Source: Escherichia coli
Lineage (GTDB): Bacteria > Pseudomonadota > Gammaproteobacteria > Enterobacterales > Enterobacteriaceae
Assembly: GCF_003019035.1 (NCBI RefSeq)
Contig: NZ_CP027447.1
Reading direction: 5' to 3' (one strand)
Length of the DNA stretch: 64,000 nucleotides
A program made the position numbers and the translations under genes. This document shows positions 10,600-51,017 of this stretch, one piece after another; position 1 is the stretch's first letter, and each line of letters opens with the position of its first letter. The notes below the pieces were generated by a model that did no database searches, had not been told where the DNA came from, and was given only the letters and a program-made list of their open reading frames with translations.

Positions 10600-10660
10600 T
10601 TGATGATGTGATCCTAATCTCTTCAGGTACGCTACCGCCCTTGGCTTAACAGCTACCAAT
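10600..10660 (-). promoter_or_regulatory. JUMPstart element with ops (5'-GGCGGTAG-3' on the transcribed strand) in the kpsM leader
   Basis: Reverse complement of about 10632-10639 is GGCGGTAG, about 33 bp upstream of the kpsM ATG, embedded in GGTAGCTGTTAAGCCAAGGGCGGTAGCGT. Confidence 0.65.
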
Positions 10661-11637
10661 ACACTGGAGGTAATGCTTATTTGTAACTGGATAAAATTTA
10701 CTCAGACGGTTTGACCTTTTTAATAGCCGCAAAAAATTTCAGCAGAAATTATTTCCGCAGGGATAAATAGATCTATTTCCGTCTCGTTTCTTCTAATCCA
10801 TTCTTCAGGCATGAATGTATTCGGTCTTCTGGTAATTTCAGAAAACTGGCCGTTTTAGAATGTAGAGTTAATTTCTCAGGAAATTATTTTTTGTTCTTAC
10901 TGTTAACTACTTGATTATAATACCCCATATGGATTTTATGCGTAACAATACCTGCAATCTGTTTCAAACCAGAACGCATGCGATTGATTACCAATAAATT
11001 GTTTAGCGAGAAACTATTTCCCTATTTAAAATTCACTCATGTACTTCTTATTTATATCTACAGCACCCTCTTTACAGTCACATTTGTGATTTACATCACA
11101 TTTAAACGGTGTTATTTAAGCCCCATTAATAATTCCGTGAGTAATTATTTTCGTCAATTAAAATATACATCTTGATTATTTTGTGCGTTTATTTTAACCA
11201 GCGTTACAGCCAGCATTATCCCTCAGTAGATATACCTGAGCAGACATTTCTTAAAATCGACGAATAGTTTCCCTGGAAATTATTATGCTTATTTGAAATT
11301 CCCTTTCTGATTATCTCCAGTAATTTTACTAATTTCCAGGCTACACAAAATACAGATCACATAAGAATTATCCTATATGTTTTGACCTATCAATTGTTAC
11401 TCAATGATTTATTACAACTATTAATAATCATAATGTGTCAAAACACTTAAGCATCTTTACAGTCTTAGAAAGGTGTCGATTAACGAAGGCTACATGGTGA
11501 AAAACAGGTTCCTTCAGTGTTACCGAATATTCCGTGGTGGTCTGGAGGGAGATAATTCTTGCTACATCGAAACTCAGCCCGGTGAGCGGGTTTGACAGTT
11601 CCGCACTCACCATTGGGCTAAGGGTTATCAGGTGGGG

Positions 11638-38044: not shown

Positions 38045-39187
38045 TCAAATCTGCTTTTCATACAATCGGTAACGCTTGTACGGCTCCGCCCCAATGCGTT
38101 CCAGCATGTTATTCATGCCTGTATTGGTTTCGAGGATCCATGACATCTCCAGCGCATCGATCTTCCGGCGGGCAAACGGATCGCGTAAGGCTTCAATCAA
38201 TAACAACGCAATCACCGGGCCGATGCGGCTGAACTGATACTCGTCCCGCACGCCCATCAGCGGTACTCGCGCAGTTCGCACACCGCTGACTTTTAAACGC
38301 CACAGCAATTTTGCCCAGCCGAAGGGAAAGAGCGATCCGTTCAGATCGGCAATCGCCTCGTTGATGTTTGGCAAGCCGACAATAAACGCGCAGGGTGCAG
38401 AATCAATCTCAGCGATGTAGATCATATCGTCCGGCACCAGATATTTAAGTTGGTCGCCCATGGTCGCGAATTCATGTTCGGTAAACGGCACAAATCCCCA
38501 GTTGTGCTGCCAGCCAGAATTGAAAATCTCACGCAGGATCTGCATCTCTTCGGCAAACCGCTGGCGATTGATGCAGCGAATGGTCACCTTCTTACGCACC
38601 TGATCCATCAGTTTTTTTAGCGCCGGAGAGAAAGTGAGATCGGTTCGCTGCATCCACCACGCCAGTAAATCAATGCCTTTGTGATAACCCAATTGTTCAA
38701 TATGCGCGGCATACCACGGTTTACCGTGCGGCATCATCGCACAGGGTGGTGTATCGAAACCTTCAATCAGTAATCCGCTTTCCTGATTGATATTCAGGCT
38801 GAAAGGCCCGCTGATCTTACTTGCACCTTGTGACTTCAACCACGCTTCCGCTGCGCCAAACAACGCGGCAAAAACCTGCGGATCATCAATGGCGTCAATC
38901 ATGCCGAAATGACCGGTATCTTTGCCGTAACGCTCGCGGTGCAAGGTATCTATTTGCGCGGTAATACGCCCAACTATCTGCCCCGCTTTTTTTGCCACCC
39001 ACGCCTGCCAGATGATATGGTCCGTCCCCGGATTTTTCGCAGACAAATGCTCGTTGCGTTCAATGAATAAAGGGGGTATCCAGTTTGGATCGTCGGGATA
39101 AAGTGATGACGGAAAAGCGATAAATGCCTTAAGGTCATTTTTATTAATTACTTTTTCAATTTTAATCATCAGCAGATCGCATTCCAT
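38045..39187 (-). CDS. yghO: YghO-like GNAT-fold N-acyltransferase (uncharacterised); candidate lipid N-acyltransferase
   Basis: 380-aa intact ORF convergent with glcC and divergent from the FAAL operon; symbol assigned by synteny. Confidence 0.7.
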   Translation of the reverse strand: MECDLLMIKIEKVINKNDLKAFIAFPSSLYPDDPNWIPPLFIERNEHLSAKNPGTDHIIWQAWVAKKAGQIVGRITAQIDTLHRERYGKDTGHFGMIDAIDDPQVFAALFGAAEAWLKSQGASKISGPFSLNINQESGLLIEGFDTPPCAMMPHGKPWYAAHIEQLGYHKGIDLLAWWMQRTDLTFSPALKKLMDQVRKKVTIRCINRQRFAEEMQILREIFNSGWQHNWGFVPFTEHEFATMGDQLKYLVPDDMIYIAEIDSAPCAFIVGLPNINEAIADLNGSLFPFGWAKLLWRLKVSGVRTARVPLMGVRDEYQFSRIGPVIALLLIEALRDPFARRKIDALEMSWILETNTGMNNMLERIGAEPYKRYRLYEKQI

Positions 39188-39557
39188 AGTTCTGTGGGTA
39201 ACAAATAATTAACGGTGACAAACAGGTTGCAACAGCAACGAACGGCACCTTAATAATCAACCCAATGAATACAAACGACGAATAAATAGTATTTATTAAT
39301 GATTACGATAAGGTCAGAGACTACACAGAAGCGCCACAATGCCTTTTGTCGATTTAAGGCGACCGGACAAGGCTCCTTCTTAATATATTCATAAATTAAA
39401 TATCATTCACAATAAAAACAAAAAACTCAAATTCATTATTTAAATCAATGTTCATTTTCACACTGATGAAAATACTATCTCATTTATCTTTTATGCCTAT
39501 ATAATCCACCGCATTATTGTCATTTTATTTTTGATATCCAATTTTTTCGTGGTGTAT

Positions 39558-41282
39558 ATGTCTAATAAAATCTTTACGCATTCCCTACCTATGCGCTATG
39601 CCGATTTTCCAACGCTGGTTGATGCTTTGGACTATGCCGCTCTGAGTAGCGCTGGAATGAATTTTTATGACAGACGTTGCCAACTTGAAGATCAACTGGA
39701 ATATCAGACGTTAAAAGCGCGTGCCGAAGCTGGTGCGAAGCGGTTGTTATCGCTGAACCTGAAAAAAGGCGATCGCGTGGCACTGATTGCCGAAACCAGT
39801 AGCGGGTTCGTAGAGGCTTTTTTTGCCTGCCAGTATGCCGGCTTAGTCGCCGTCCCGTTGGCGATTCCCATGGGCGTCGGTCAGCGGGATTCCTGGAGCG
39901 CCAAGCTGCAGGGTTTACTGGCAAGTTGCCAGCCCGCAGCCATTATCACTGGTGATGAGTGGTTGCCACTGGTCAATGCCGCGACGCATAACAACAACCC
40001 CGAATTACATGTTTTAAGCCACGCCTGGTTTAAGGCATTACCGGAAGCCGATGTTGCGCTCCAGCGTCCAGTTCCGAACGATATCGCCTACCTCCAGTAC
40101 ACCTCCGGCAGCACCCGTTTTCCCCGTGGCGTCATTATCACCCATCGCGAAGTGATGGCTAATCTACGTGCTATAAGCCACGATGGCATAAAATTACGCC
40201 CTGGCGACCGCTGCGTCTCCTGGCTGCCTTTCTACCATGATATGGGACTGGTCGGCTTTCTCCTGACCCCCGTCGCCACGCAGCTTTCAGTAGATTATTT
40301 GCGCACTCAGGATTTTGCCATGCGTCCTCTGCAATGGCTTAAATTGATCAGTAAAAATCGCGGCACCGTTTCCGTTGCGCCGCCGTTTGGCTATGAATTG
40401 TGCCAGCGCCGCGTGAATGAAAAAGATCTCGCTGAACTGGATCTTTCCTGCTGGCGCGTCGCTGGTATTGGTGCAGAACCCATCTCCGCAGAACAACTCC
40501 ATCAATTCGCTGAATGTTTCCGTCAGGTCAACTTTGACGATAAAACTTTCATGCCGTGCTACGGACTGGCAGAAAATGCGCTGGCTGTCAGCTTCTCTGA
40601 TGAAGCTTCCGGGGTTGTGGTTAACGAAGTGGATCGCGACATCCTCGAATATCAGGGCAAAGCCGTCGCGCCGGATGCTGAAACACGCGCCGTATCGACT
40701 TTCGTCAACTGCGGTAAAGCGTTGCCGGAACATGGCATTGAAATCCGCAATGAAGCAGGTATACCTGTCGCGGAACGTGTGGTAGGCCATATTTGCATCT
40801 CCGGCCCTAGCCTGATGAGCGGTTACTTTGGCGACCAGATTTCACAAGACGAGATTGCCGCGACGGGCTGGTTAGACACCGGCGACCTCGGTTATCTGCT
40901 GGACGGTTATCTGTATGTCACCGGACGCATTAAAGATCTGATTATTATTCGTGGCCGTAATATCTGGCCGCAGGATATTGAATATATTGCGGAACAGGAA
41001 CCGGAAATTCATTCTGGCGATGCGATTGCTTTTGTTACCGCCCAGGAAAAAATCATTTTGCAGATCCAGTGTCGGATCAGCGATGAAGAACGTCGCGGGC
41101 AGCTTATCCACGCGCTGGCAGCACGGATCCAAAGCGAATTTGGTGTGACCGCGGCTATCGATCTGTTGCCGCCCCACAGTATTCCCCGAACGTCCTCCGG
41201 CAAGCCTGCCCGTGCGGAAGCGAAAAAACGTTATCAGAAGGCTTATGCTGCAAGCCTTCATGTGCAGGAATCCCTGGCATGA
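39558..41282 (+). CDS. Fatty acyl-AMP ligase / acyl-CoA (acyl-ACP) synthetase family protein
   Basis: AMP-binding motifs YTSGSTRFPRGV and GYGLAENA-like YGLAENALAV; start uncertain (TTG 39531, ATG 39558 or ATG 39591). Confidence 0.8.
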   Translation: MSNKIFTHSLPMRYADFPTLVDALDYAALSSAGMNFYDRRCQLEDQLEYQTLKARAEAGAKRLLSLNLKKGDRVALIAETSSGFVEAFFACQYAGLVAVPLAIPMGVGQRDSWSAKLQGLLASCQPAAIITGDEWLPLVNAATHNNNPELHVLSHAWFKALPEADVALQRPVPNDIAYLQYTSGSTRFPRGVIITHREVMANLRAISHDGIKLRPGDRCVSWLPFYHDMGLVGFLLTPVATQLSVDYLRTQDFAMRPLQWLKLISKNRGTVSVAPPFGYELCQRRVNEKDLAELDLSCWRVAGIGAEPISAEQLHQFAECFRQVNFDDKTFMPCYGLAENALAVSFSDEASGVVVNEVDRDILEYQGKAVAPDAETRAVSTFVNCGKALPEHGIEIRNEAGIPVAERVVGHICISGPSLMSGYFGDQISQDEIAATGWLDTGDLGYLLDGYLYVTGRIKDLIIIRGRNIWPQDIEYIAEQEPEIHSGDAIAFVTAQEKIILQIQCRISDEERRGQLIHALAARIQSEFGVTAAIDLLPPHSIPRTSSGKPARAEAKKRYQKAYAASLHVQESLA

Positions 41283-42193
41283 ATCAAACTGTCGCGGTGA
41301 CGGGCGCTACCGGGTTTATCGGTAAATATATTATCGATAACCTGCTCGCCCGCGGCTTTCACGTTCGCGCATTGACGCGTACTGCCCGTGCTCACGTCAA
41401 TGACAATCTCATCTGGGTGCGCGGTTCTCTGGAAGATACTCATTCACTTAGCGAACTGGTTGCCGGAGCCAGCGTGGTGGTCCATTGCGCCGGGCAAGTG
41501 CGCGGGCACAAAGAAGAGATTTTTACCCGCTGTAACGTTGACGGCAGCCTGCGACTGATGCAAGCGGCAAAAGAGAGCGGCTTTTGCCAACGTTTTCTGT
41601 TTATCTCTTCGCTGGCGGCGCGCCATCCCGAACTCTCCTGGTACGCAAATTCCAAACACGTCGCCGAACAACGGCTGACTGCAATGGCTGATGAAATTAC
41701 GCTGGGCGTTTTTCGCCCGACAGCCGTGTATGGTCCCGGCGATAAAGAGTTAAAACCGCTGTTTGACTGGATGCTGCGCGGCCTGCTGCCACGACTTGGT
41801 GCGCCAGATACACAACTCTCTTTCCTGCACGTCACCGATTTTGCGCAAGCAGTGGGTCAGTGGTTAAGCGCCGAAACTGTACAGACGCAAACCTATGAAT
41901 TATGCGATGGCGTCGCTGGCGGCTATGACTGGCAACGCGTACGACAGCTTGCCGCCGAAGCCCGTTGTGGTTCTGTGCAGATGGTTGGCATTCCTCTGCC
42001 GGTACTCACCTGCCTTGCGGATATCAGTACTGCGTTGAGTCGCCTGGCAGGTAAAGAACCTATGCTGACCCGCTCGAAAATTCGTGAATTAACCCACGCC
42101 GACTGGTCGGCAAATAATAACCGTATTTCTGAAGATATTAATTGGTTTCCCGGGATTAGCCTGGAACACGCATTACGCAACGGGCTATTTTGA
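41279..42193 (+). CDS. NAD(P)-dependent epimerase/dehydratase-family SDR (candidate keto-reductase)
   Basis: VTGATGFIGKYI Rossmann motif, YANSK catalytic YxxxK; ATGA start/stop overlap with upstream gene. Confidence 0.85.
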   Translation: MNQTVAVTGATGFIGKYIIDNLLARGFHVRALTRTARAHVNDNLIWVRGSLEDTHSLSELVAGASVVVHCAGQVRGHKEEIFTRCNVDGSLRLMQAAKESGFCQRFLFISSLAARHPELSWYANSKHVAEQRLTAMADEITLGVFRPTAVYGPGDKELKPLFDWMLRGLLPRLGAPDTQLSFLHVTDFAQAVGQWLSAETVQTQTYELCDGVAGGYDWQRVRQLAAEARCGSVQMVGIPLPVLTCLADISTALSRLAGKEPMLTRSKIRELTHADWSANNNRISEDINWFPGISLEHALRNGLF

Positions 42194-42224
42194 TTGTCTT
42201 GTTTAAAGGTGTGTTAACGTTTCT

Positions 42225-42473
42225 ATGGTAAATCGTGAAATAGTAATGGATTACATCCTTTCCTGTTTACAGGATTTGGTCGAAAACGGTGTGGAAATTA
42301 AGCCCAACAGCGATCTCGTCAACGATCTTGGCCTGGAGTCGATCAAAGTGATGGATCTCTTAATGATGCTGGAAGACAGATTCGATATTTCCATTCCTAT
42401 TAATATTCTGCTGGATGTCAAAACCCCTGTGCAATTAATGGAAACTCTACTTCCATGGCTGGAGAATAAATAA
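42225..42473 (+). CDS. Acyl carrier protein
   Basis: 82 aa; phosphopantetheine attachment motif DLGLESI; acidic helical protein. Confidence 0.85.
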   Translation: MVNREIVMDYILSCLQDLVENGVEIKPNSDLVNDLGLESIKVMDLLMMLEDRFDISIPINILLDVKTPVQLMETLLPWLENK

Positions 42474-43645
42474 TGGGGCTATACGATAAATATGCGCGCC
42501 TTGCTGGCGAGCGACTGCAATTTAGTGACAACGGGTTAACGCCGTTTGGTACCTGTATTGATGAAGTGTATTCCGCCACCGAAGGTCGGATCGGCAATAA
42601 AAAAGTGATTCTGGCCGGGACCAATAATTATCTCGGTTTAACCTTTAATCATGATGCCATCGCCGAAGGTCAGGCAGCGTTAGCGGCCCAAGGCACCGGC
42701 ACCACCGGTTCTCGTATGGCTAATGGCAGTTATGCGCCGCATCTGGCGTTAGAGAAAGAGATTGCCGAGTTTTTCAATCGCCCTACCGCTATCGTTTTTT
42801 CAACCGGTTATACCGCTAATTTAGGCGTCATCAGCGCACTTGCCGACCATAACGCCGTGGTGTTACTGGATGCCGACAGCCACGCCAGTATTTATGACGC
42901 CTGTTCTCTCGGTGGCGCGGAAATTATTCGTTTCCGCCATAACGATGCTAAAGATCTGGAACGGCGCATGGTTCGCCTCGGTGAACGGGCGAAAGAGGCG
43001 ATTATCATCGTTGAGGGCATCTACAGCATGCTCGGTGACGTTGCGCCGTTAGCGGAAATTGTTGATATCAAACGTCGTCTCGGTGGTTATTTGATTGTCG
43101 ATGAAGCGCATTCGTTTGGCGTGTTAGGCGCAACGGGGCGCGGACTGGCTGAAGCCGTTGGCGTTGAAGATGATGTGGATATTATCGTTGGTACTTTCAG
43201 TAAAAGTCTGGCCTCGATTGGCGGTTTTGCTGTCGGTTCGGAAGCGATGGAAGTGTTGCGCTACGGCAGCCGCCCGTATATTTTTACCGCCTCTCCTTCT
43301 CCGTCCTGCATTGCGACCGTGCGCTCGTCGTTAAGAACCATTGCCTCACAACCAGAGCTGCGGCAAAAGCTGATGGATAACGCCAACCATCTGTATGACG
43401 GTCTGCAAAAACTGGGTTATGAGTTAAGTTCACATATTAGCCCGGTAGTGCCGGTAATAATCGGTTCGAAAGAGGACGGTTTACGCATCTGGCGCGAGCT
43501 TATTTCGCTGGGCGTTTATGTGAATCTTATCCTGCCACCTGCCGCGCCTGCAGGCATCACTCTGCTGCGCTGTAGCGTAAACGCTGCCCACAGTCATGAG
43601 CAAATCGATGCCATCATTCAGGCATTTGCTACTCTGAAGCAGTAA
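42473..43645 (+). CDS. Alpha-oxoamine synthase (PLP-dependent; serine palmitoyltransferase / KBL / BioF family)
   Basis: 390 aa; GTNNYLGL, DEAHSFGVLG, GTFSKSLASIGG (PLP lysine); TAATG overlap with ACP gene. Confidence 0.85.
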   Translation: MGLYDKYARLAGERLQFSDNGLTPFGTCIDEVYSATEGRIGNKKVILAGTNNYLGLTFNHDAIAEGQAALAAQGTGTTGSRMANGSYAPHLALEKEIAEFFNRPTAIVFSTGYTANLGVISALADHNAVVLLDADSHASIYDACSLGGAEIIRFRHNDAKDLERRMVRLGERAKEAIIIVEGIYSMLGDVAPLAEIVDIKRRLGGYLIVDEAHSFGVLGATGRGLAEAVGVEDDVDIIVGTFSKSLASIGGFAVGSEAMEVLRYGSRPYIFTASPSPSCIATVRSSLRTIASQPELRQKLMDNANHLYDGLQKLGYELSSHISPVVPVIIGSKEDGLRIWRELISLGVYVNLILPPAAPAGITLLRCSVNAAHSHEQIDAIIQAFATLKQ

Positions 43646-43651
43646 TGTGAG

Positions 43652-43684
43652 CCCGCCGTGGTGTTGCGCCACGGCGGGTTTAAT
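43652..43684 (+). terminator. Rho-independent terminator of the FAAL-SDR-ACP-AOS operon at the convergent junction
   Basis: CCCGCCGTGG-TGTTGCG-CCACGGCGGG followed by TTTAAT; coordinates approximate. Confidence 0.55.
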
Positions 43685-44759
43685 GTTGTCTGTCATACCA
43701 ATACACCAGGCTCAACGCCATCAGGACAAACGCTACCGGTAAACCGAGCGCGGTAACAGGTGCACTCAACGCAAATAGCAACCCCAGATTGACCATGATT
43801 TGATAGCTGATCCAGGTGAGTAAGCCAACGATGACGCCTACAGCGAGACGGCTACCCATCCCTGGCGAGCGCGGGGCGCTAAAGGTGAACGGCACAGCCA
43901 GCAAAATCATCGCCAGGGTCAGGATCGGTTGCCCCAGTTTTTCCCACAGTGCAAGGCGGTATTCGCTGCTGGGTTGTCCGGTTTCCTGCAAATAATGGAT
44001 GTAATGATTAAGCTGACGGACAGAAAAAGTATTCCCCGGCATCGATAACTCTTCAAGATCCATACTGGTGAAGGCCGATTGCCAGGCAAGATTATCTGAT
44101 GTTTCCAGCGTTTCTTTGCCATTCAACCATTTTTTATGATTCACACCATGCAGGATCCACGTTTTGTCGTCTTCAATGGAGGCACTGCGTGCAAAAATGT
44201 AGGATTCGAGCGAGAGATCGTCGCGATAATGAAATATCTCCACGCCCACAGGCTGGCCCTGCTCGTTCAGCGATTTCACCGTCACAAATTCATTACCGCG
44301 CCTGGCCCAAAGCATATTGCCGGTAATGTCATCGTCCTCCCCCAACGCGGTGGCAGTCGATTTGATTTGCAGCGCCTGTTGCTGCAATGGCGACGCCACC
44401 CACTCATCTATCGCGCCTAACGAAACAGTCCACAATATCCCGGCAACCAGCGCCACCAGTGCAATACGGAAGATAGAAAACCCAGTGCTGCGAATGGCGG
44501 TAAGCTCACTGTTTTTCGATAACTGCCCCAGGCCAACAATCCCTCCCAATAATGCGATAAATGGCGAAAGTTCGACCAGTGTACGCGGTAAGGTCATCAG
44601 CACCACCAGCACCGCCTGAGTCCAGCGATAACCGCCCGGGCTGACATCATCCAGTTCGTTAATCAGGTTGAAGGTGGTAAAAAGCGGCAGCAATAGCCCT
44701 GCGGCGGCGGCAAAACCGAGAAAGAGATGACGGATTAAATAGCGACTGAAAACATTCAT
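43680..44759 (-). CDS. LptG-like permease (YjgP/YjgQ family)
   Basis: Six-TM architecture with large periplasmic domain; start set at MNVFSRYLIRHLF, overlapping the upstream stop (ATGA). Confidence 0.8.
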   Translation of the reverse strand: MNVFSRYLIRHLFLGFAAAAGLLLPLFTTFNLINELDDVSPGGYRWTQAVLVVLMTLPRTLVELSPFIALLGGIVGLGQLSKNSELTAIRSTGFSIFRIALVALVAGILWTVSLGAIDEWVASPLQQQALQIKSTATALGEDDDITGNMLWARRGNEFVTVKSLNEQGQPVGVEIFHYRDDLSLESYIFARSASIEDDKTWILHGVNHKKWLNGKETLETSDNLAWQSAFTSMDLEELSMPGNTFSVRQLNHYIHYLQETGQPSSEYRLALWEKLGQPILTLAMILLAVPFTFSAPRSPGMGSRLAVGVIVGLLTWISYQIMVNLGLLFALSAPVTALGLPVAFVLMALSLVYWYDRQH

Positions 44760-45826
44760 CGGGAAAATTTCTGCAGCAAAGAGAAGTCGCGTGCGACCAG
44801 CATCAGCAGGCCCATTAGCATGAGTCCGGGTACTAACCACAAACCAGGAATGAGGGGAATCGCACCGTTAGCCACCAGCGTACGGCAGACGTCGCCGCCA
44901 TAAAAAATGGCAACAAACAGCAACGTCAGTGGCAATAACGTTGAAAATCGCCCTTGCCGCGGTTTTACCCGACTTAATGAAATGGCCAGCAGCGCCATCA
45001 ACAATGCGGTCAGGCCACGGCTTTGTCGCCATTGCAGTTCGGCATGATCGGCTGGAAAGACGGAGCGCGCCAGCTCCGTGACCGATTTTGCTTTGCGTTT
45101 GACGTTAGGGCTTTGATCCAGCTGATTCAGATGTAATTGCAGATTACGGTAGATCTGTTCGTTGTCGTCACGCCCCTGATGATCGAGAAGATAGGCGGTC
45201 CCGTTATGCAACATAACGGTCGGTTTCTCAGGTGATGGGTCAACCACATCAACCGAACGGGCGCGGAAAATGCGGGTTCGATTGGCAGTAGAAGTATAAA
45301 TCAGCGCGTCAGTCAGGCGATTATTATCCTGATCAACCGTCTGCGAAAGGATCATTCGTCCGTTATCGTTAGTGTTAAATTTCTTTGCCCGCAACTGGCG
45401 AACATCCAGCTCCGACTGCGACTGTTGCTCCAGTTGATAAATCTGCGCATAAGCCCACGGCCGACCATACATCGACAGAAGGGTGACAAAAATACTTAGC
45501 GGTATCGCCAGATAAAGAACGGCTTTGTACAAGCGTCCCGGACTGCCCCCCGCCGCAGAGATAGCGGTAATTTCCGAGTCGGTATACATCTGCCCTAGCG
45601 TCACGCCAACTGACACATACAGACCAACAGGTAACAACATCTCCAGTGCAATCAGCACTTTGTAGAAAACGATATCCAGCACAACATCAAGAGCTAAGGT
45701 CCCATTTGCCGCTTCGGTCAGATAACGCTGTGCGGAGTAGCTGGCGAAAATAAAGATCAGAAAACCGACGATAATCAGCACCAGACGGCGCGTACCACGC
45801 ATGATGTAGTGTTCAACCAGCTTCAT
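44756..45826 (-). CDS. LptF-like permease (YjgP/YjgQ family)
   Basis: 356 aa, same architecture, translationally coupled to the LptG-like gene. Confidence 0.8.
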   Translation of the reverse strand: MKLVEHYIMRGTRRLVLIIVGFLIFIFASYSAQRYLTEAANGTLALDVVLDIVFYKVLIALEMLLPVGLYVSVGVTLGQMYTDSEITAISAAGGSPGRLYKAVLYLAIPLSIFVTLLSMYGRPWAYAQIYQLEQQSQSELDVRQLRAKKFNTNDNGRMILSQTVDQDNNRLTDALIYTSTANRTRIFRARSVDVVDPSPEKPTVMLHNGTAYLLDHQGRDDNEQIYRNLQLHLNQLDQSPNVKRKAKSVTELARSVFPADHAELQWRQSRGLTALLMALLAISLSRVKPRQGRFSTLLPLTLLFVAIFYGGDVCRTLVANGAIPLIPGLWLVPGLMLMGLLMLVARDFSLLQKFSR

Positions 45827-45856: not shown

Positions 45857-46420
45857 TTATTCATTGATCAGTTTCTGCGCCAGCGCAATGACATGATCTA
45901 CCTCTTCCGGCGTCAGGCTGCCGTCCTTTGCCCACTGAATTTGCCCGTCTTTATTCAGCACCAGAATGGTTGAACTCTGCTCCGGCAACCGCCAGGCAAC
46001 GCGTCCCAGTCCATTGCCGTCAATAACGAATTGCGCCCACGGATAGCGGCGTTTATTTTTTTCGATTTTGCCAACGACAAAATAGCCAGTACCGAAGATG
46101 GCATCATCGGTGTTCACAATGGTGGTGGGCTGAAAACGATCCTGCGGAAAGTTTGCCGCTTCAACCGCTTTAATTAACAGTGAGTTCTTTTTCTTCGCCG
46201 ACTTACGCCCGGCGATATACTGAATAATGCGGACTTTTCCCGCCAGCTGTGTGCTGTTCCACTTTTGGTAGTGAATTTCGTCGTCGCTATTCAGAAGCAG
46301 CTCGCCGCCTTCCTGGATATAAACGGGGGTAACCGTTTTGCCAGTGACGAAATTGTGTGCCTGCACACCCTGGGCTAAGAGCATGATAATCAGCGCAATA
46401 ATCAAACGAGATGACATCAT
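45857..46420 (-). CDS. Periplasmic YtfJ-like protein
   Basis: 187 aa with signal peptide MMSSRLIIALIIMLLAQGVQA; family assignment tentative. Confidence 0.6.
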   Translation of the reverse strand: MMSSRLIIALIIMLLAQGVQAHNFVTGKTVTPVYIQEGGELLLNSDDEIHYQKWNSTQLAGKVRIIQYIAGRKSAKKKNSLLIKAVEAANFPQDRFQPTTIVNTDDAIFGTGYFVVGKIEKNKRRYPWAQFVIDGNGLGRVAWRLPEQSSTILVLNKDGQIQWAKDGSLTPEEVDHVIALAQKLINE

Positions 46421-46428
46421 TGCTCCGG

Positions 46429-47253
46429 TTATAGCGGAAAACGCGAAATCAGCAGCTCTAAGCGCTGGCGAATATCGCTATCCAGCGCCACCGGTGCATC
46501 ATACGACTGGCGGTTTTCCATATCATCCGCCACCATGTCGTCGTGTTTATCCCCCATCAGGCCATTAATGGCGGCGAGGAAGCGGGAAATCTGTAACGCC
46601 TCTTTATTTTCAGGATCAAGCGATCTTAAGGTGTCGTAATAAGAAACCTGCTGGCTGATGATTTTTCGCACATCATGAAATTCCCTGCCGGTGAGTCGCG
46701 GTTTGGCAATTATCTCTTTCAGGGTATGCATTTGCTTTTGCCGATAGGCAATAAAACCGCTTACGCTTTCTAACTGGCTATGGCGTAATGAATAGTTCAC
46801 CAACGACCAGACCGGAGAGCTTAAATAAACCCGTAACAGGTTGCCGTAATACGACACAATATTTTTCTTACCGTTACGAAAACCGTCCTGAAAACGCCCC
46901 AAAAAAACGGTCGTTTTGCCGAATAAAAATCCGGCCTGATGCTTCTTTAAATACAGCCGTTGCGCAAAACGCAGGTGCTTGTAGCGCGCTCGCATGTATT
47001 TATACTTTTTGCGCTCATCGTCGGTAAGTATTTTGCCTTTTGCTTGTTTCAGCGTTAAGCGAAGTAACTCTTTGCGATTTACACCATCCAGCCAGAATCT
47101 CAAACATAAGGCATAATTGTCATGAATAATCTCCGGTGAACAGCGCAAAGTGATCGTTGGCGGCAAGCTAACCTGTGTGTCAATAACATCATTATCATCA
47201 ACAGCAATAAATAAACGCTCAATGACCTCAAGTGGAAAGTATTTTCTCATCAT
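46429..47253 (-). CDS. Hypothetical basic protein of unknown function
   Basis: 274-aa ORF in operon context, Lys/Arg-rich, no recognisable motif. Confidence 0.6.
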   Translation of the reverse strand: MMRKYFPLEVIERLFIAVDDNDVIDTQVSLPPTITLRCSPEIIHDNYALCLRFWLDGVNRKELLRLTLKQAKGKILTDDERKKYKYMRARYKHLRFAQRLYLKKHQAGFLFGKTTVFLGRFQDGFRNGKKNIVSYYGNLLRVYLSSPVWSLVNYSLRHSQLESVSGFIAYRQKQMHTLKEIIAKPRLTGREFHDVRKIISQQVSYYDTLRSLDPENKEALQISRFLAAINGLMGDKHDDMVADDMENRQSYDAPVALDSDIRQRLELLISRFPL

Positions 47254-48602
47254 TGGAATTTTTCTCCGACTCCGTTATAGACCAATAAATGGCGACGGAG
47301 AAAAGTCCTTAATGTCGGTGCTAACGACAGGATCACATCCAGACATTGACCACCGAAATAAGCAAATGCAGCCCCCATTACGCCAAACAGATGACAAAAC
47401 ATAAACAACAAAATAACGTAAGCTAACGATGCAATAGTTTGTGCTATCAAAAAAGCGCGCTGTTTTCCCGCCATCAATAGCAATGACTCCTGAGGGAAGC
47501 CCAGCATCGAGATCACAATTGCGCCCAGCATCACCTGAATCAGGTCATACGCTTCGAGATACTTAACGCCAAACACCAGCGAAATAAGCGGCTTGCCGAC
47601 GATCAACACCGCGAGCGCCACCAGAATTCCGATTCCGCCCGCCAGTAAACCTGACTTCACGCCTAACAACCACGGTCTGGTGGTGCGCGGATCTAAACGC
47701 ATCACCTCTGGGTAAAAACTTTTGCCCAGTAAACCCGCTGGCGTTCCGGCGGCGTCGAAGAATGTCATGGCGATTTTAAATAACCCGGCGGCAGCGGGTC
47801 CTAACACGATCCCCACCAGCACTGTGCTGCACGAGTTACGCGCCGACCAGATGGAGTGGGCAATGTTGGTTGACCAGACAAAACTCCACGCGCCTTTGAT
47901 GTGTCGGGCAGACTCAAACAGATTCAATTTGAACGCGTTATGGATATTTCTGCGGCGTAATTCGCGCGCGGCAAACCACCAGTACATGGTGCCGCCAACC
48001 AGATTCGACACGTACCAGGCAATAACAAAGCCCGCAAAACCAAAGTCAAAATACCAGGCTACGACGCTCCCCGCTGCGCGCAGAAAAGGTTTCGTCGCTT
48101 GCTGTACAGCAATTAGATCGAAGCGATCTACCGCACGCAGAATGCCGGTCGGCGTGGAGGAAGCCATTGAAGGAATGAGCGTGCAATACAGCGCTGCCAG
48201 CCAAAAGCTTTGGTCATCCAGACCTAATGAATGGGAAAGAAAAGGGAGTAAGGCAATGCCGCCGACAATCGCCACCGCGCCGCTGACGATATCCAGCGAG
48301 AAGGAAAATGAGACGACATTGCGGAATTGCTGCGGATTATTGTTGGTTAATGCTGGTGTTCCGTACTGAACCACCAGCTGCCATGTCTGAAACTTAATAA
48401 AATCGCTGATCGACTTGGCGTACGATTGTACAATCACCAGTACGCCAAACATGGCGGGCGTCATCCCTTTACCGGCACACGAGAGCGCCAACAGACCCAG
48501 TAAAGCGCTCACGACATTACTGGAGCCTAACCAGGCGCTATTGCGAATAATGGTGCGAAACGCGCCATCTGCAAACCAATGTTTGATGTTAAAACCCGCC
48601 AA
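47250..48602 (-). CDS. yghQ: MOP/PST-family polysaccharide or lipid flippase (Wzx-like)
   Basis: 450-aa polytopic ORF; synteny upstream of yghR. Confidence 0.8.
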   Translation of the reverse strand: MAGFNIKHWFADGAFRTIIRNSAWLGSSNVVSALLGLLALSCAGKGMTPAMFGVLVIVQSYAKSISDFIKFQTWQLVVQYGTPALTNNNPQQFRNVVSFSFSLDIVSGAVAIVGGIALLPFLSHSLGLDDQSFWLAALYCTLIPSMASSTPTGILRAVDRFDLIAVQQATKPFLRAAGSVVAWYFDFGFAGFVIAWYVSNLVGGTMYWWFAARELRRRNIHNAFKLNLFESARHIKGAWSFVWSTNIAHSIWSARNSCSTVLVGIVLGPAAAGLFKIAMTFFDAAGTPAGLLGKSFYPEVMRLDPRTTRPWLLGVKSGLLAGGIGILVALAVLIVGKPLISLVFGVKYLEAYDLIQVMLGAIVISMLGFPQESLLLMAGKQRAFLIAQTIASLAYVILLFMFCHLFGVMGAAFAYFGGQCLDVILSLAPTLRTFLRRHLLVYNGVGEKFQ

Positions 48603-48647: not shown

Positions 48648-49406
48648 TTAAGTTAAACTTCGGCGGTCAGAAACGATGGCAACCAGAGAAACCGCCTTCT
48701 GTGCCTGTTCCAGCACTTCGCTGTAAGGCGCTCTGGAATCAATCTCAAGAATTTTTGTGCCGTTATAGCCAATCGTCGACATGACGCCGATTTTGTCCTG
48801 CAGCTCGGCATAGTCATGGTCAGGCTTGCGGGAGATGGCAGTATCAATATCAATCCCCAAACGAATGATTAATTCAGGACGGTATTGCGCCATTTGTTGG
48901 TATAAACGCCGTTCGCGCTGCGCCAGAAACATGCTGATTTTCCCGGTCGCACGTTCGACGCCGATCCCCGGTCCGTCATAATAAAAGCCCGAAATTTCAG
49001 CCTGCGGGAAGCGATCGCTGACCACCAGAACGCCACTTTGCGCCAGTCGCTGAACCTTGCGTAGATTCGCCATTCTTCGCAGCGAGAAGCAGTACATAAT
49101 CACCGCCGCCCATACCGCCGGAGATTTGGTTTTCATGCTTTGGGTTTTCGAGGATTTGGCCGCCAGTCGCCGTTCGAGCCAGACGCCAACCAACGGCAAT
49201 CGTTTGATTTTGTCGCCGTCTTCGCCCGAGAGCAGCCCCAGATAGCGCCGCTCGGTTTGCCAGTGTTGTTGCAGCGATTTCACGAGGTCGGTGGTCAGTG
49301 TGGATTTACCGGTGCCATCACACCCGACCACCGCAATCAGCCCCGGAATGTAGTTGGGCTGCGGCGCGGTTGTACTATTAACAGTTTGTGTTTGTAGTGC
49401 GTCCAT
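48648..49406 (-). CDS. yghR: P-loop NMP-kinase-fold protein (putative small-molecule or lipid kinase)
   Basis: Walker A GCDGTGKSTL near N-terminus, DRFP motif; paralog of yghS and yghT. Confidence 0.8.
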   Translation of the reverse strand: MDALQTQTVNSTTAPQPNYIPGLIAVVGCDGTGKSTLTTDLVKSLQQHWQTERRYLGLLSGEDGDKIKRLPLVGVWLERRLAAKSSKTQSMKTKSPAVWAAVIMYCFSLRRMANLRKVQRLAQSGVLVVSDRFPQAEISGFYYDGPGIGVERATGKISMFLAQRERRLYQQMAQYRPELIIRLGIDIDTAISRKPDHDYAELQDKIGVMSTIGYNGTKILEIDSRAPYSEVLEQAQKAVSLVAIVSDRRSLT

Positions 49407-49437: not shown

Positions 49438-50151
49438 TCAGGAAAGCGCAGCGTGAATTGCGCGTAGTGACGCTTGCAGAATTTCATCGGCTGGTTGCCG
49501 ACCATCCAGTTCAAGGATCTTTGCGCCATTGAATGTCAGTTGCGGCGTAACGGCGATTTTTTCCTGTAACGCTGCCAGTTGGTGGTCAGGTTTACGCGCA
49601 AACGCGGTTTGTTCATCAATGCCAAGACGAATCAACAATACGGGCAAATAAGACGCCATCCATTGGTACAGCTTCAGCTCGCGCTGCCTTAACATTTTTA
49701 TCCAACCGTTACCGCCCGTGGTTTTTGCCAATTGCGGGCCATCAAAGCGAAAACCCGGCACTTCAACCTGCGGGTAGCGGTCGGTGATGAGCAGATAGCC
49801 TTGCTGGCTTTTACACAACATTTTGCGAAACTTGTACGCCCGCCAGCAGGAAAGCAGATAGATAACCAGCGCAGTAATATTGCCAGGCGGTGTGGAGGGC
49901 TTTTCGTGCACATGTGCCGCTTTACTTCGCAGATAACGCCCAAAAGGTGCGCCAATAACAGGGAGCTGTGAAATCCATTCGCCAATTCGCCCGGACGATT
50001 GCCCGAGATAAATGTGTTCTGTTGGCATTGTTGCTGCCAGTTCATTTACCAGGCTTGCCGTGAGGGTCGATTTACCTGAACCATCACATCCTACAATGGC
50101 AATAACACGCACTGGCGTGGAATTAATTATTGACATATTACGTTGATTCAC
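49438..50151 (-). CDS. yghS: P-loop NMP-kinase-fold protein, paralog of yghR
   Basis: Walker A GCDGSGKSTL, DRYP motif. Confidence 0.8.
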   Translation of the reverse strand: MNQRNMSIINSTPVRVIAIVGCDGSGKSTLTASLVNELAATMPTEHIYLGQSSGRIGEWISQLPVIGAPFGRYLRSKAAHVHEKPSTPPGNITALVIYLLSCWRAYKFRKMLCKSQQGYLLITDRYPQVEVPGFRFDGPQLAKTTGGNGWIKMLRQRELKLYQWMASYLPVLLIRLGIDEQTAFARKPDHQLAALQEKIAVTPQLTFNGAKILELDGRQPADEILQASLRAIHAALS

Positions 50152-50324: not shown

Positions 50325-51017
50325 ATGCAGTCAATAACACCTCCATTAATTGCCGTTATTGGTAGCGATGGTTCAGGCAAGTCAACGGTGTGTGAACATC
50401 TCATTACCGTTGTCGAAAAATATGGTGCTGCCGAAAGAGTTCATTTAGGAAAACAGGCCGGAAATGTCGGTCGTGCAGTGACAAAATTACCGTTGATGGG
50501 AAAATCCTTACATAAAACAATTGAACGAAATCAGGTGAAAACAGCAAAAAAATTGCCAGGACCAGTTCCGGCGCTGGTAATTACAGCGTTTGTCGCCCGT
50601 CGCTTACTGCGCTTTCGTCATATGCTTGCCTGTCGTCGTCGCGGGTTAATTGTTCTAACCGACCGTTATCCTCAGGACCAAATTCCTGGCGCTTACGATG
50701 GTACAGTGTTCCCACCTAACATTGAAGGTGGTCGTTTTGTCTCATGGCTGGCAAGCTAGGAACGTAAAGCGTTTCACTGGATGGCGAGCCATAAACCGGA
50801 TCTGGTCATCAAACTCAATGTTGACCTTGAAGTTGCCTGCGCGCGTAAACCCGACCATAAACGGGAATCGCTGGCGAGGAAGATTGCCATAACGCCACAG
50901 TTAACCTTTGGCGGTGCACAACTGGTTGATATCGATGCTAATCAGCCACTGGAAAAGGTGCTGATTGATGCAGAAAAAGCGATTACGGATTTTATGACCG
51001 CGCGTGGTTATCACTAG
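50325..51017 (+). pseudogene. yghT: yghT-like P-loop paralog interrupted by an in-frame TAG
   Basis: ORFs 50325-50759 and 50781-51017 are in the same frame, separated only by TAG at 50757-50759; joined they give a 230-codon yghR/yghS paralog ([13 protein letters not shown]). Confidence 0.75.

Follow-up and report, generated by a model that had tools for sequence, protein, structure and literature searches.

What kind of protein is encoded by the gene for a basic, 274-residue product that directly follows the putative flippase gene yghQ in Escherichia coli, and which pathway does it serve? The gene lies at positions 46429-47253 of the window, meaning the whole stretch of 64,000 nucleotides analysed here (RefSeq assembly GCF_003019035.1, contig NZ_CP027447.1). 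An earlier note, made from the sequence of the window, had described it as a Lys/Arg-rich orphan reading frame, and the analysis confirmed both its coordinates, with an ATG start on the minus strand, and its composition (274 aa, K+R 16.4%, D+E 11.7%, pI 9.64, GRAVY -0.41). A sequence check found no N-terminal hydrophobic segment, signal peptide or membrane segment, which together with this composition marks the product as basic and soluble; it is a cytoplasmic, basic, all-alpha protein.

The junctions of the gene place it within a tightly packed operon. The stop codon of yghQ and the start codon of the 274-aa gene overlap, as the earlier note had reported, by the 4 nt ATGA (CAATGATGAGA, positions 47250-47253), with GGAG ~10 nt upstream of the ATG. 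At the other end, the TAA stop codon (46429-46431) is separated by 8 nt, CCGGAGCA, which include a Shine-Dalgarno-like GGAG, from the ATG of the ytfJ-like gene at position 46420. In the direction of transcription the operon reads yghS-yghR-yghQ-274-aa gene-ytfJ-lptF2-lptG2, with gaps of at most 45 nt or overlaps, so that the description of the gene as lying 8 bp downstream of the YtfJ-like gene holds in plus-strand coordinates only: in transcription it is downstream of yghQ and upstream of ytfJ. The suggestion that it is co-translated with yghQ was borne out in other genomes: at ~40 of the 48 loci compared, which span many genera, the stop of yghQ and the start of the 274-aa gene overlap or abut (-4, -1 or 0 nt). 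The features of the locus are collected in Table 1.

Table 1. Features of the locus; positions and strands are those of the window.
Feature	Position	Strand	Description	Remarks
Ceramide-synthesis half of locus	38045..43645	both		SCU-301 annotation, mapped with offset +32428
yghO	38045-39187	minus	bCerS-type N-acyltransferase	
aasR	39558-41282	plus		
cerR/epi	41279-42193	plus		
acpR	42225-42473	plus		
spt	42473-43645	plus		
Hairpin	43648..43682		16-bp GC-rich hairpin	in the 34-nt gap between convergent spt and lptG2
lptG2	43680..44759	minus	LptG paralog	TIGR04408, 305 bits; annotated start 44759, longest ORF to 44840
lptF2	44756..45826	minus	paralog of LPS-export permease LptF	TIGR04407, 319 bits
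ytfJ-family gene	45857..46420	minus	N-terminal signal-peptide-like segment	TIGR01626, 216 bits, above cutoff
274-aa gene	46429..47253	minus	basic, all-helical; near-certain divergent CHAD fold	database names hypothetical protein / Ybl138
yghQ	47250..48602	minus	MOP-superfamily (Wzx/MurJ-like) flippase	weak NCBIfam MOP match; PGAP 'lipopolysaccharide biosynthesis protein'
yghR	48648..49406	minus	P-loop, thymidylate-kinase fold	
yghS	49438..50151	minus	yghR paralog, probably first operon gene	promoter-like site 50229-50201
yghT	50325..51017	plus	third paralog, divergent	amber codon at 50757-50759

The annotation of the locus was taken from the near-identical strain E. coli SCU-301, from which the window differs by 3 mismatches in 28.8 kb. 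In that annotation yghO-aasR-cerR-acpR-spt is convergent with lptG2-lptF2-ytfJ-274-aa gene-yghQ-yghR-yghS, and yghT is divergent; the hairpin between spt and lptG2 is likely a bidirectional terminator that closes both operons. The phosphate transporter gene pitB adjoins the locus. What the earlier note called a transporter operon is really the half of the E. coli sphingolipid (ceramide) locus that deals with transport and the head group, a context that had gone unrecognised there. The first steps of the pathway have been reconstituted, with formation of 3-oxo-sphinganine by AasR, AcpR, and Spt orthologs from BL21 (PMC9386255), and the locus of E. coli UTI89 has been drawn beside that of Caulobacter (bioRxiv 10.64898/2026.04.12.717747). 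Our literature searches turned up nothing published on what yghQ, yghR/S/T, the ytfJ-like gene and the 274-aa gene do, on the E. coli end product or on its head-group chemistry; a search for ybl138 likewise returned no paper on the gene.

The gene is real and widespread. It might be taken for a spurious or decaying reading frame, given that its GC content (44.8%) is slightly below the ~51% of neighbouring genes, that its product lacks a family model and that this product is the least conserved protein of the cluster. This reading is refuted by a dN/dS of 0.087-0.089 (dN 0.047 and dS 0.52-0.54, against three other Escherichia lineages), by conservation over the full length across orders, down to 20-30% identity, and by an AlphaFold2 model with a mean pLDDT of 97.1. 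A lack of conservation, which the earlier note had named as a sign of a spurious frame, is thus not what was found: 4148 of 5426 complete E. coli genomes have the gene, and full-length homologs, every one labelled 'hypothetical', occur throughout Enterobacterales. The protein has 308 homologs at E<=1e-3 (90% clusters), and a profile search of 1.84 billion representative proteins returned 292 clusters (50% identity) at the same threshold.

The sphingolipid locus is intact in roughly three out of four complete E. coli genomes, among them BL21 and UTI89 but not K-12. The K-12 genome lacks the 274-aa gene, with IS5 in place of everything between a truncated yghO and a truncated yghQ. In MG1655 (L066, positions 3130146-3131340), IS5 (insH9) stands in place of the stretch from the 5' part of yghO to the 3' part of yghQ, a deletion that took aasR, cerR, acpR, spt, lptG2, lptF2, the ytfJ-like gene and the 274-aa gene. 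Because of this deletion K-12 is unable to make sphingolipid, and the genes have no K-12 names.

Within E. coli, the 274-aa gene and yghQ (46429-48602) are unusually polymorphic. Most E. coli genomes carry a 274-aa gene 90-95% identical to that of the window, 524 carry one at 80-90% (e.g. UTI89, 86.9%), and only 8 reach >=99%; by comparison, spt (42473-43645) is 95-99% identical in 4077 genomes. The transport half of the locus may hold several deep allele classes or the traces of old recombination. The dN/dS of the 274-aa gene stays low despite this polymorphism.

In keeping with the earlier note, which saw no recognisable catalytic motif, the Pfam, NCBIfam, and PADLOC models do not match the 274-aa protein, and a sequence search of the PDB with a profile of 18 Enterobacterales sequences gave nothing significant. 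Structure prediction, which the note had suggested, was more informative. The AlphaFold2 model (pTM 0.93) consists of 11 helices, contains two four-helix bundles related by pseudo-twofold symmetry as in the CHAD fold (PF05235), and has as its top Foldseek match 6qv5, the CHAD protein of Ricinus (RcCHAD), with a probability of 0.96. With a family profile of 95 sequences, the same protein was the best match among 177,635 PDB sequences (E 1.5e-3), and both repeats align with it in register. In the first repeat, 'K85-x-x-R88-x-x-x-K92-H-x-R95-F' falls onto 'H-Q-M-R-V-G-V-R-R-L-R-S' of RcCHAD, with K85, R88, K92, and R95 at the positions of H, R, R, and R. In the second, 'F-H193-x-x-R196-K … N-G-L-M-G234-x-x-H-D238' falls onto 'A-H-R-T-R-I … E-E-L-G-R-H-N-D', with H193, R196, G234, and D238 opposite H, R, G, and D. 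The two halves of the protein also align with each other, weakly and in the same register, which fits the pseudo-twofold CHAD architecture.

Homology to CHAD is supported transitively rather than directly, because distant members of the family match PF05235 and the E. coli protein does not. Among the distant members, 5 of 41 match the Pfam CHAD model at E<=1e-3 (best 2.5e-5) and 19 of 41 at E<=0.1, and some betaproteobacterial homologs carry a precomputed PF05235 match; the query and its 18 Enterobacterales orthologs give no match at E<=1e-3, the best value being 0.094 for one member. An hhalign comparison of the family with YgiF gave no alignment, YgiF being a short, atypical CHAD represented by one sequence. 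Taken with the fold and the profile match to 6qv5, we regard the CHAD fold and homology of the protein as close to certain. It is not the orphan that the earlier note had described, but belongs to a deeply diverged CHAD-fold sub-family that is largely missed by current domain models.

At the level of sequence, the motifs kept in this sub-family are near-invariant and correspond to those of the ligand-binding helices of CHAD. R88, H193, and R196 are invariant in the 95 sequences, and K92, R95, H105, G119, D123, K197, N230, G234, H237, and D238 are conserved in >=90% of them; the motifs read K85-x2-R88-x3-K92-x2-R95, G119-x3-D123, H193-x2-R196-K197, and G234-x2-H237-D238. In canonical CHAD proteins inorganic polyphosphate (polyP) is held by an HxxRxxxR helix motif together with basic residues nearby, and no metal or catalytic site was found in these proteins; in Chlorobium CtCHAD the motif that binds polyP is H253/R256/R260 (PMC6537752). 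By analogy, the conserved basic residues of the 274-aa protein would line a groove.

The closest known family is thus that of the solved CHADs (6QV5, Ricinus RcCHAD; 3E0S and 6QVA, Chlorobium CtCHAD; 6RN5, Streptomyces PptA; 5A61, the C-terminal domain of E. coli YgiF), which provide both the best structural and the best PDB sequence matches. The likeness extends to the two four-helix bundles and internal repeat, a similar length (~280 aa, the 'long' type), the basic character, and the motifs H/K-x2-R-x3-K/R-x2-R and (L/M)G-x2/3-D in both halves, in register. The 274-aa protein differs from solved CHADs in its low identity to them (~8-18%), in lying under every Pfam threshold, in the replacement of the first-repeat histidine by lysine (K85), and in an extra N-terminal region of ~75 residues with three helices. 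It also differs in its genetic partners, which are sphingolipid synthesis, flippase, kinase, and Lpt genes instead of PPK, PPX or TTM: the usual CHAD associations (an N-terminal TTM domain, or operons with PPK/PPX) were not seen in the E. coli, Methylotenera, and Halioglobus loci inspected, the homology screen of the 53 genome loci described below having covered the cluster genes only.

Two other assignments were considered and rejected. SEED/RAST labels a family member 'Conserved hypothetical TPR repeat protein, clustered with yghQ' (P0094), a label that captures the helical nature of the protein and its link to yghQ, but no match to tandem 34-residue helix-turn-helix TPR repeats was found to support it. 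Nor does the protein have the H...HD...D metal site in an HD fold expected of an HD-domain or other metal-dependent phosphohydrolase.

Starting from the alignment of 18 sequences and taking one genome per species, a scan yielded 53 loci. They belong to Escherichia, Pseudocitrobacter, Hafnia, Serratia, Pantoea, Erwinia, Rosenbergiella, Tatumella, and others, as well as to Rhodanobacter, Luteibacter, and Dyella. In every one of these loci that has the cluster, yghQ directly precedes the 274-aa gene on the same strand. The cluster genes were found in the large majority of the 53, several of which are cut by contig ends; two Pluralibacter paralogs (L025, L030) stand alone. The divergent arrangement of yghT with yghS-yghR recurs in essentially all loci, while the positions and orientations of spt-acpR-cerR and of lptFG vary, and in the Xanthomonadales loci the pairing with yghQ is kept although lptFG and ytfJ are not nearby. 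The conservation and synteny that the earlier note had proposed to examine therefore extend through Enterobacterales and beyond. The flippase, beside which the note placed the gene, is among its most constant partners, and so is the YghR/S/T trio.

More distant loci show the same partners in other arrangements. In Methylotenera, the homolog of the 274-aa gene lies between a yghT-like gene and GT4, yghS-like, and yghR-like genes, with the flippase, spt, acpR, cerR, and aasR ~4-9 kb downstream on the other strand and PAP2 phosphatase genes upstream. In Halioglobus, the gene is divergent from that of the flippase, with lptF/G, the kinase trio, and a PAP2 gene nearby. The contigs of several distant homologs, which are metagenomic, were too short to inform on context. 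In gamma- and betaproteobacteria, the 274-aa gene is co-inherited with the flippase, with YghR/S/T, and usually with LptF2/LptG2. It is co-located with spt/acpR/cerR/aasR and with transport genes across distant taxa, and very probably is a member of the sphingolipid module.

In beta- and other gammaproteobacteria, PAP2-family genes adjoin the yghT-like, CHAD-like, and kinase genes (L060 8325-8864, L067 7443-9014, L068 16580-17122). L067 also contains GT2 and GT4 glycosyltransferase genes and an Asp/Arg-hydroxylase-type gene; the E. coli locus has no PAP2, GT2/GT4 or hydroxylase-type gene. The lineages probably do not share one head group, but lipid phosphates are involved.

The kinase trio bears on the chemistry of the locus. 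YghR has a thymidylate-kinase fold, and YghR, YghS, and YghT share the invariant motifs G-x-D-G-x-G-K (a Walker A with Asp), D-R-x-P, and R-K-x-x-H, as well as a low-confidence insertion of ~40 residues (57-97 in YghR) not found in thymidylate kinases. PGAP names two of the three 'dTMP kinase', which is very likely wrong as their function because the scores are far under the curated cutoff. Thymidylate and other NMP kinases move phosphate onto a phosphate acceptor, and stepwise building of a di- or oligophosphate head group is for that reason conceivable. The yghT gene of the window carries a CAG>TAG change at Gln145, one of only 3 differences from SCU-301 in 28.8 kb, and judged by this codon the strain probably lacks the activity of one of its three kinase paralogs.

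The locus of Caulobacter crescentus (CC_1152-CC_1168: spt, acpR, aasR, cerR, bcerS, cpgA-D, the flippase CC_1166, and LptF2/G2/C2) offers the closest comparison. It has the same ceramide-synthesis genes as E. coli, and also a MOP-type flippase and LptF2/LptG2 paralogs. Its product is an anionic, phosphorylated sphingolipid (PMC9393093, PMC11324152, bioRxiv 10.64898/2026.04.12.717747). LptF2/G2 of Caulobacter bind LptB, and lptF2/G2 can be deleted only in an spt-deleted background, which implicates LptF2/G2 in sphingolipid export there (bioRxiv 10.64898/2026.04.12.717747). In contrast, none of the Caulobacter head-group genes, which encode an LCB5-type kinase (CpgB), a Tam41-like protein (CpgC), a PgsA-like protein (CpgA), and a cytidylyltransferase (CpgD), is found in the E. 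coli-type locus, which instead has the three thymidylate-kinase-fold paralogs, the CHAD-like protein, and the YtfJ-family protein. This difference between the gene sets suggests that the E. coli-type head-group chemistry differs from that of Caulobacter. The Caulobacter and Sphingomonas loci, both for phosphorylated head groups, were compared by description only, and their descriptions include no comparable CHAD-like protein (PMC11324152 S1 text). One paper credits Caulobacter CpgC with 'no conserved domains', and a correspondence of the 274-aa protein to it was considered; it was rejected, CC_1161 being described as Tam41-like (PMC11324152 S1 text).

Based on the fold and the context, we tentatively favour, at somewhat less than an even chance for the explanation as a whole, the view that the 274-aa protein is a CHAD-fold adaptor of the sphingolipid locus. 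In this model, the protein would sit at the cytoplasmic face of the inner membrane as an adaptor without catalytic activity, and its basic groove would hold a lipid derived from ceramide by its phosphate-rich head group. That head group would be the work of the YghR/S/T kinases, the adaptor would hand the lipid to YghQ and so link phosphorylation to flipping, and LptB-LptF2G2 would then extract the lipid for the outer membrane. The adaptor mechanism with head-group binding is possible and more doubtful than the explanation that contains it. We assume that the E. coli sphingolipid has a phosphate-rich head group. The groove could alternatively hold polyP itself; the phosphorylated head group of the ceramide-derived lipid made by the locus is the most plausible ligand, and free polyP is less likely. 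Against this explanation speak the stand-alone paralogs in Pluralibacter, the distant members with signal peptides, the lack of a comparable protein in the descriptions of the Caulobacter and Sphingomonas loci, the failure of the Enterobacterales proteins to reach a Pfam CHAD threshold, and the negative hhalign comparison with YgiF. The earlier note had envisaged an enzyme or adaptor acting on the exported lipid at the cytoplasmic face: the cytoplasmic location stands and an adaptor is compatible with the data, while an enzyme is disfavoured by the closest solved relatives, which are non-catalytic polyP binders (PMC6537752).

An enzymatic role is nevertheless the most substantial of the competing explanations, though in our judgement an unlikely one. 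In such an enzyme, H105, D123, H193, and H237-D238 would form a metal or phospho-histidine site for the transfer or hydrolysis of a phosphate-containing ceramide head group. These residues are conserved in >=90% of the 95 sequences, CHAD histidines were first proposed to be metal chelators or phosphoacceptors (Iyer & Aravind, cited in PMC6537752), some bacteria have proteins that join the domain to an APH-type kinase, the neighbours of the gene in other lineages include PAP2 lipid phosphatases and glycosyltransferases, and no other gene of the E. coli locus obviously encodes a head-group transferase. However, solved CHADs showed neither a conserved metal site nor catalysis (PMC6537752), and the G..HD motif of the 274-aa protein aligns with the ordinary CHAD 'LG..xD' helix motif. 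The CHAD fold with its polyP-type motifs, the adjoining pitB gene and the existence of stand-alone paralogs would also suit an ordinary polyphosphate-granule protein ('phosin') that serves polyP storage, with its place in a lipid locus incidental or regulatory, for example coupling export to phosphate or energy status. We consider this improbable: no PPK, PPX or TTM gene was seen beside the gene in any locus inspected, its linkage to sphingolipid, flippase, and kinase genes survives extensive shuffling of gene order in beta- and gammaproteobacteria, and its translational coupling to yghQ is conserved.

That same coupling, in the form of the conserved ATGA overlap, is what one would expect if the protein served YghQ or LptB-LptF2G2 as a cytoplasmic subunit or chaperone and had no ligand of its own. 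The position of the gene fits this too: it directly follows the flippase gene in Enterobacterales and Xanthomonadales, and the two genes are divergent in Halioglobus. A purely structural or assembly role nonetheless has little probability in our view. The Methylotenera gene is apart from the flippase and among the kinases, the invariant residues are the ligand-binding ones of CHAD, and YghQ (pI 9.8) and the 274-aa protein (pI 9.6) are both strongly basic, as would suit two proteins with a common anionic ligand more than partners in an electrostatic complex.

The adaptor reading, in which the protein presents a lipid to YghQ, can be taken a step further. The kinases might build, step by step, a head group on ceramide that is dense in phosphate, be it an oligophosphate (pyro- or polyphosphate-like) or of another kind, with a CHAD-derived protein recruited from polyP binding as the dedicated receptor that hands this lipid to YghQ. 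We put this forward as a speculation that is quite unlikely to be correct; if true, a polyP-binding module would here have been put to use on a lipid, and that lipid would represent a class new to the bacterial outer membrane.

This analysis shows no new mechanism. New here are an unrecognised CHAD sub-family and its pathway context; the fold was known, and we infer the function. The assignment extends the CHAD family beyond polyphosphate metabolism, delimits a sub-family that numbers at least 292 clusters (50% identity), and gives a testable handle on the locus: phosphate-polymer-binding motifs that appear to be kept, coupling to the flippase, and co-inheritance with three kinases.

The wider family of the 274-aa protein is more varied than its E. 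coli member, and one tandem duplication is known in it. Proteins of ~980 residues (P0235, P0238; L004 10001-12931) have a signal-peptide-like N terminus, an APH/choline-kinase-type domain (HGDLKPxNLFFD), and two tandem CHAD-like copies, and other distant members have a signal peptide or lipobox (P0178, P0269). Part of the wider family thus appears to be extracytoplasmic and, because signal peptides occur in several distant members, the family is not tied to one compartment or pathway. The stand-alone second paralogs, in Pluralibacter gergoviae (L025) and a Pluralibacter MAG (L030), are 57-60% identical (match 10001-10800) and have no sphingolipid cluster around them; that of L025 adjoins betT/betI, with a gene for an OlsC/LpxO-like lipid hydroxylase ~3.3 kb upstream.
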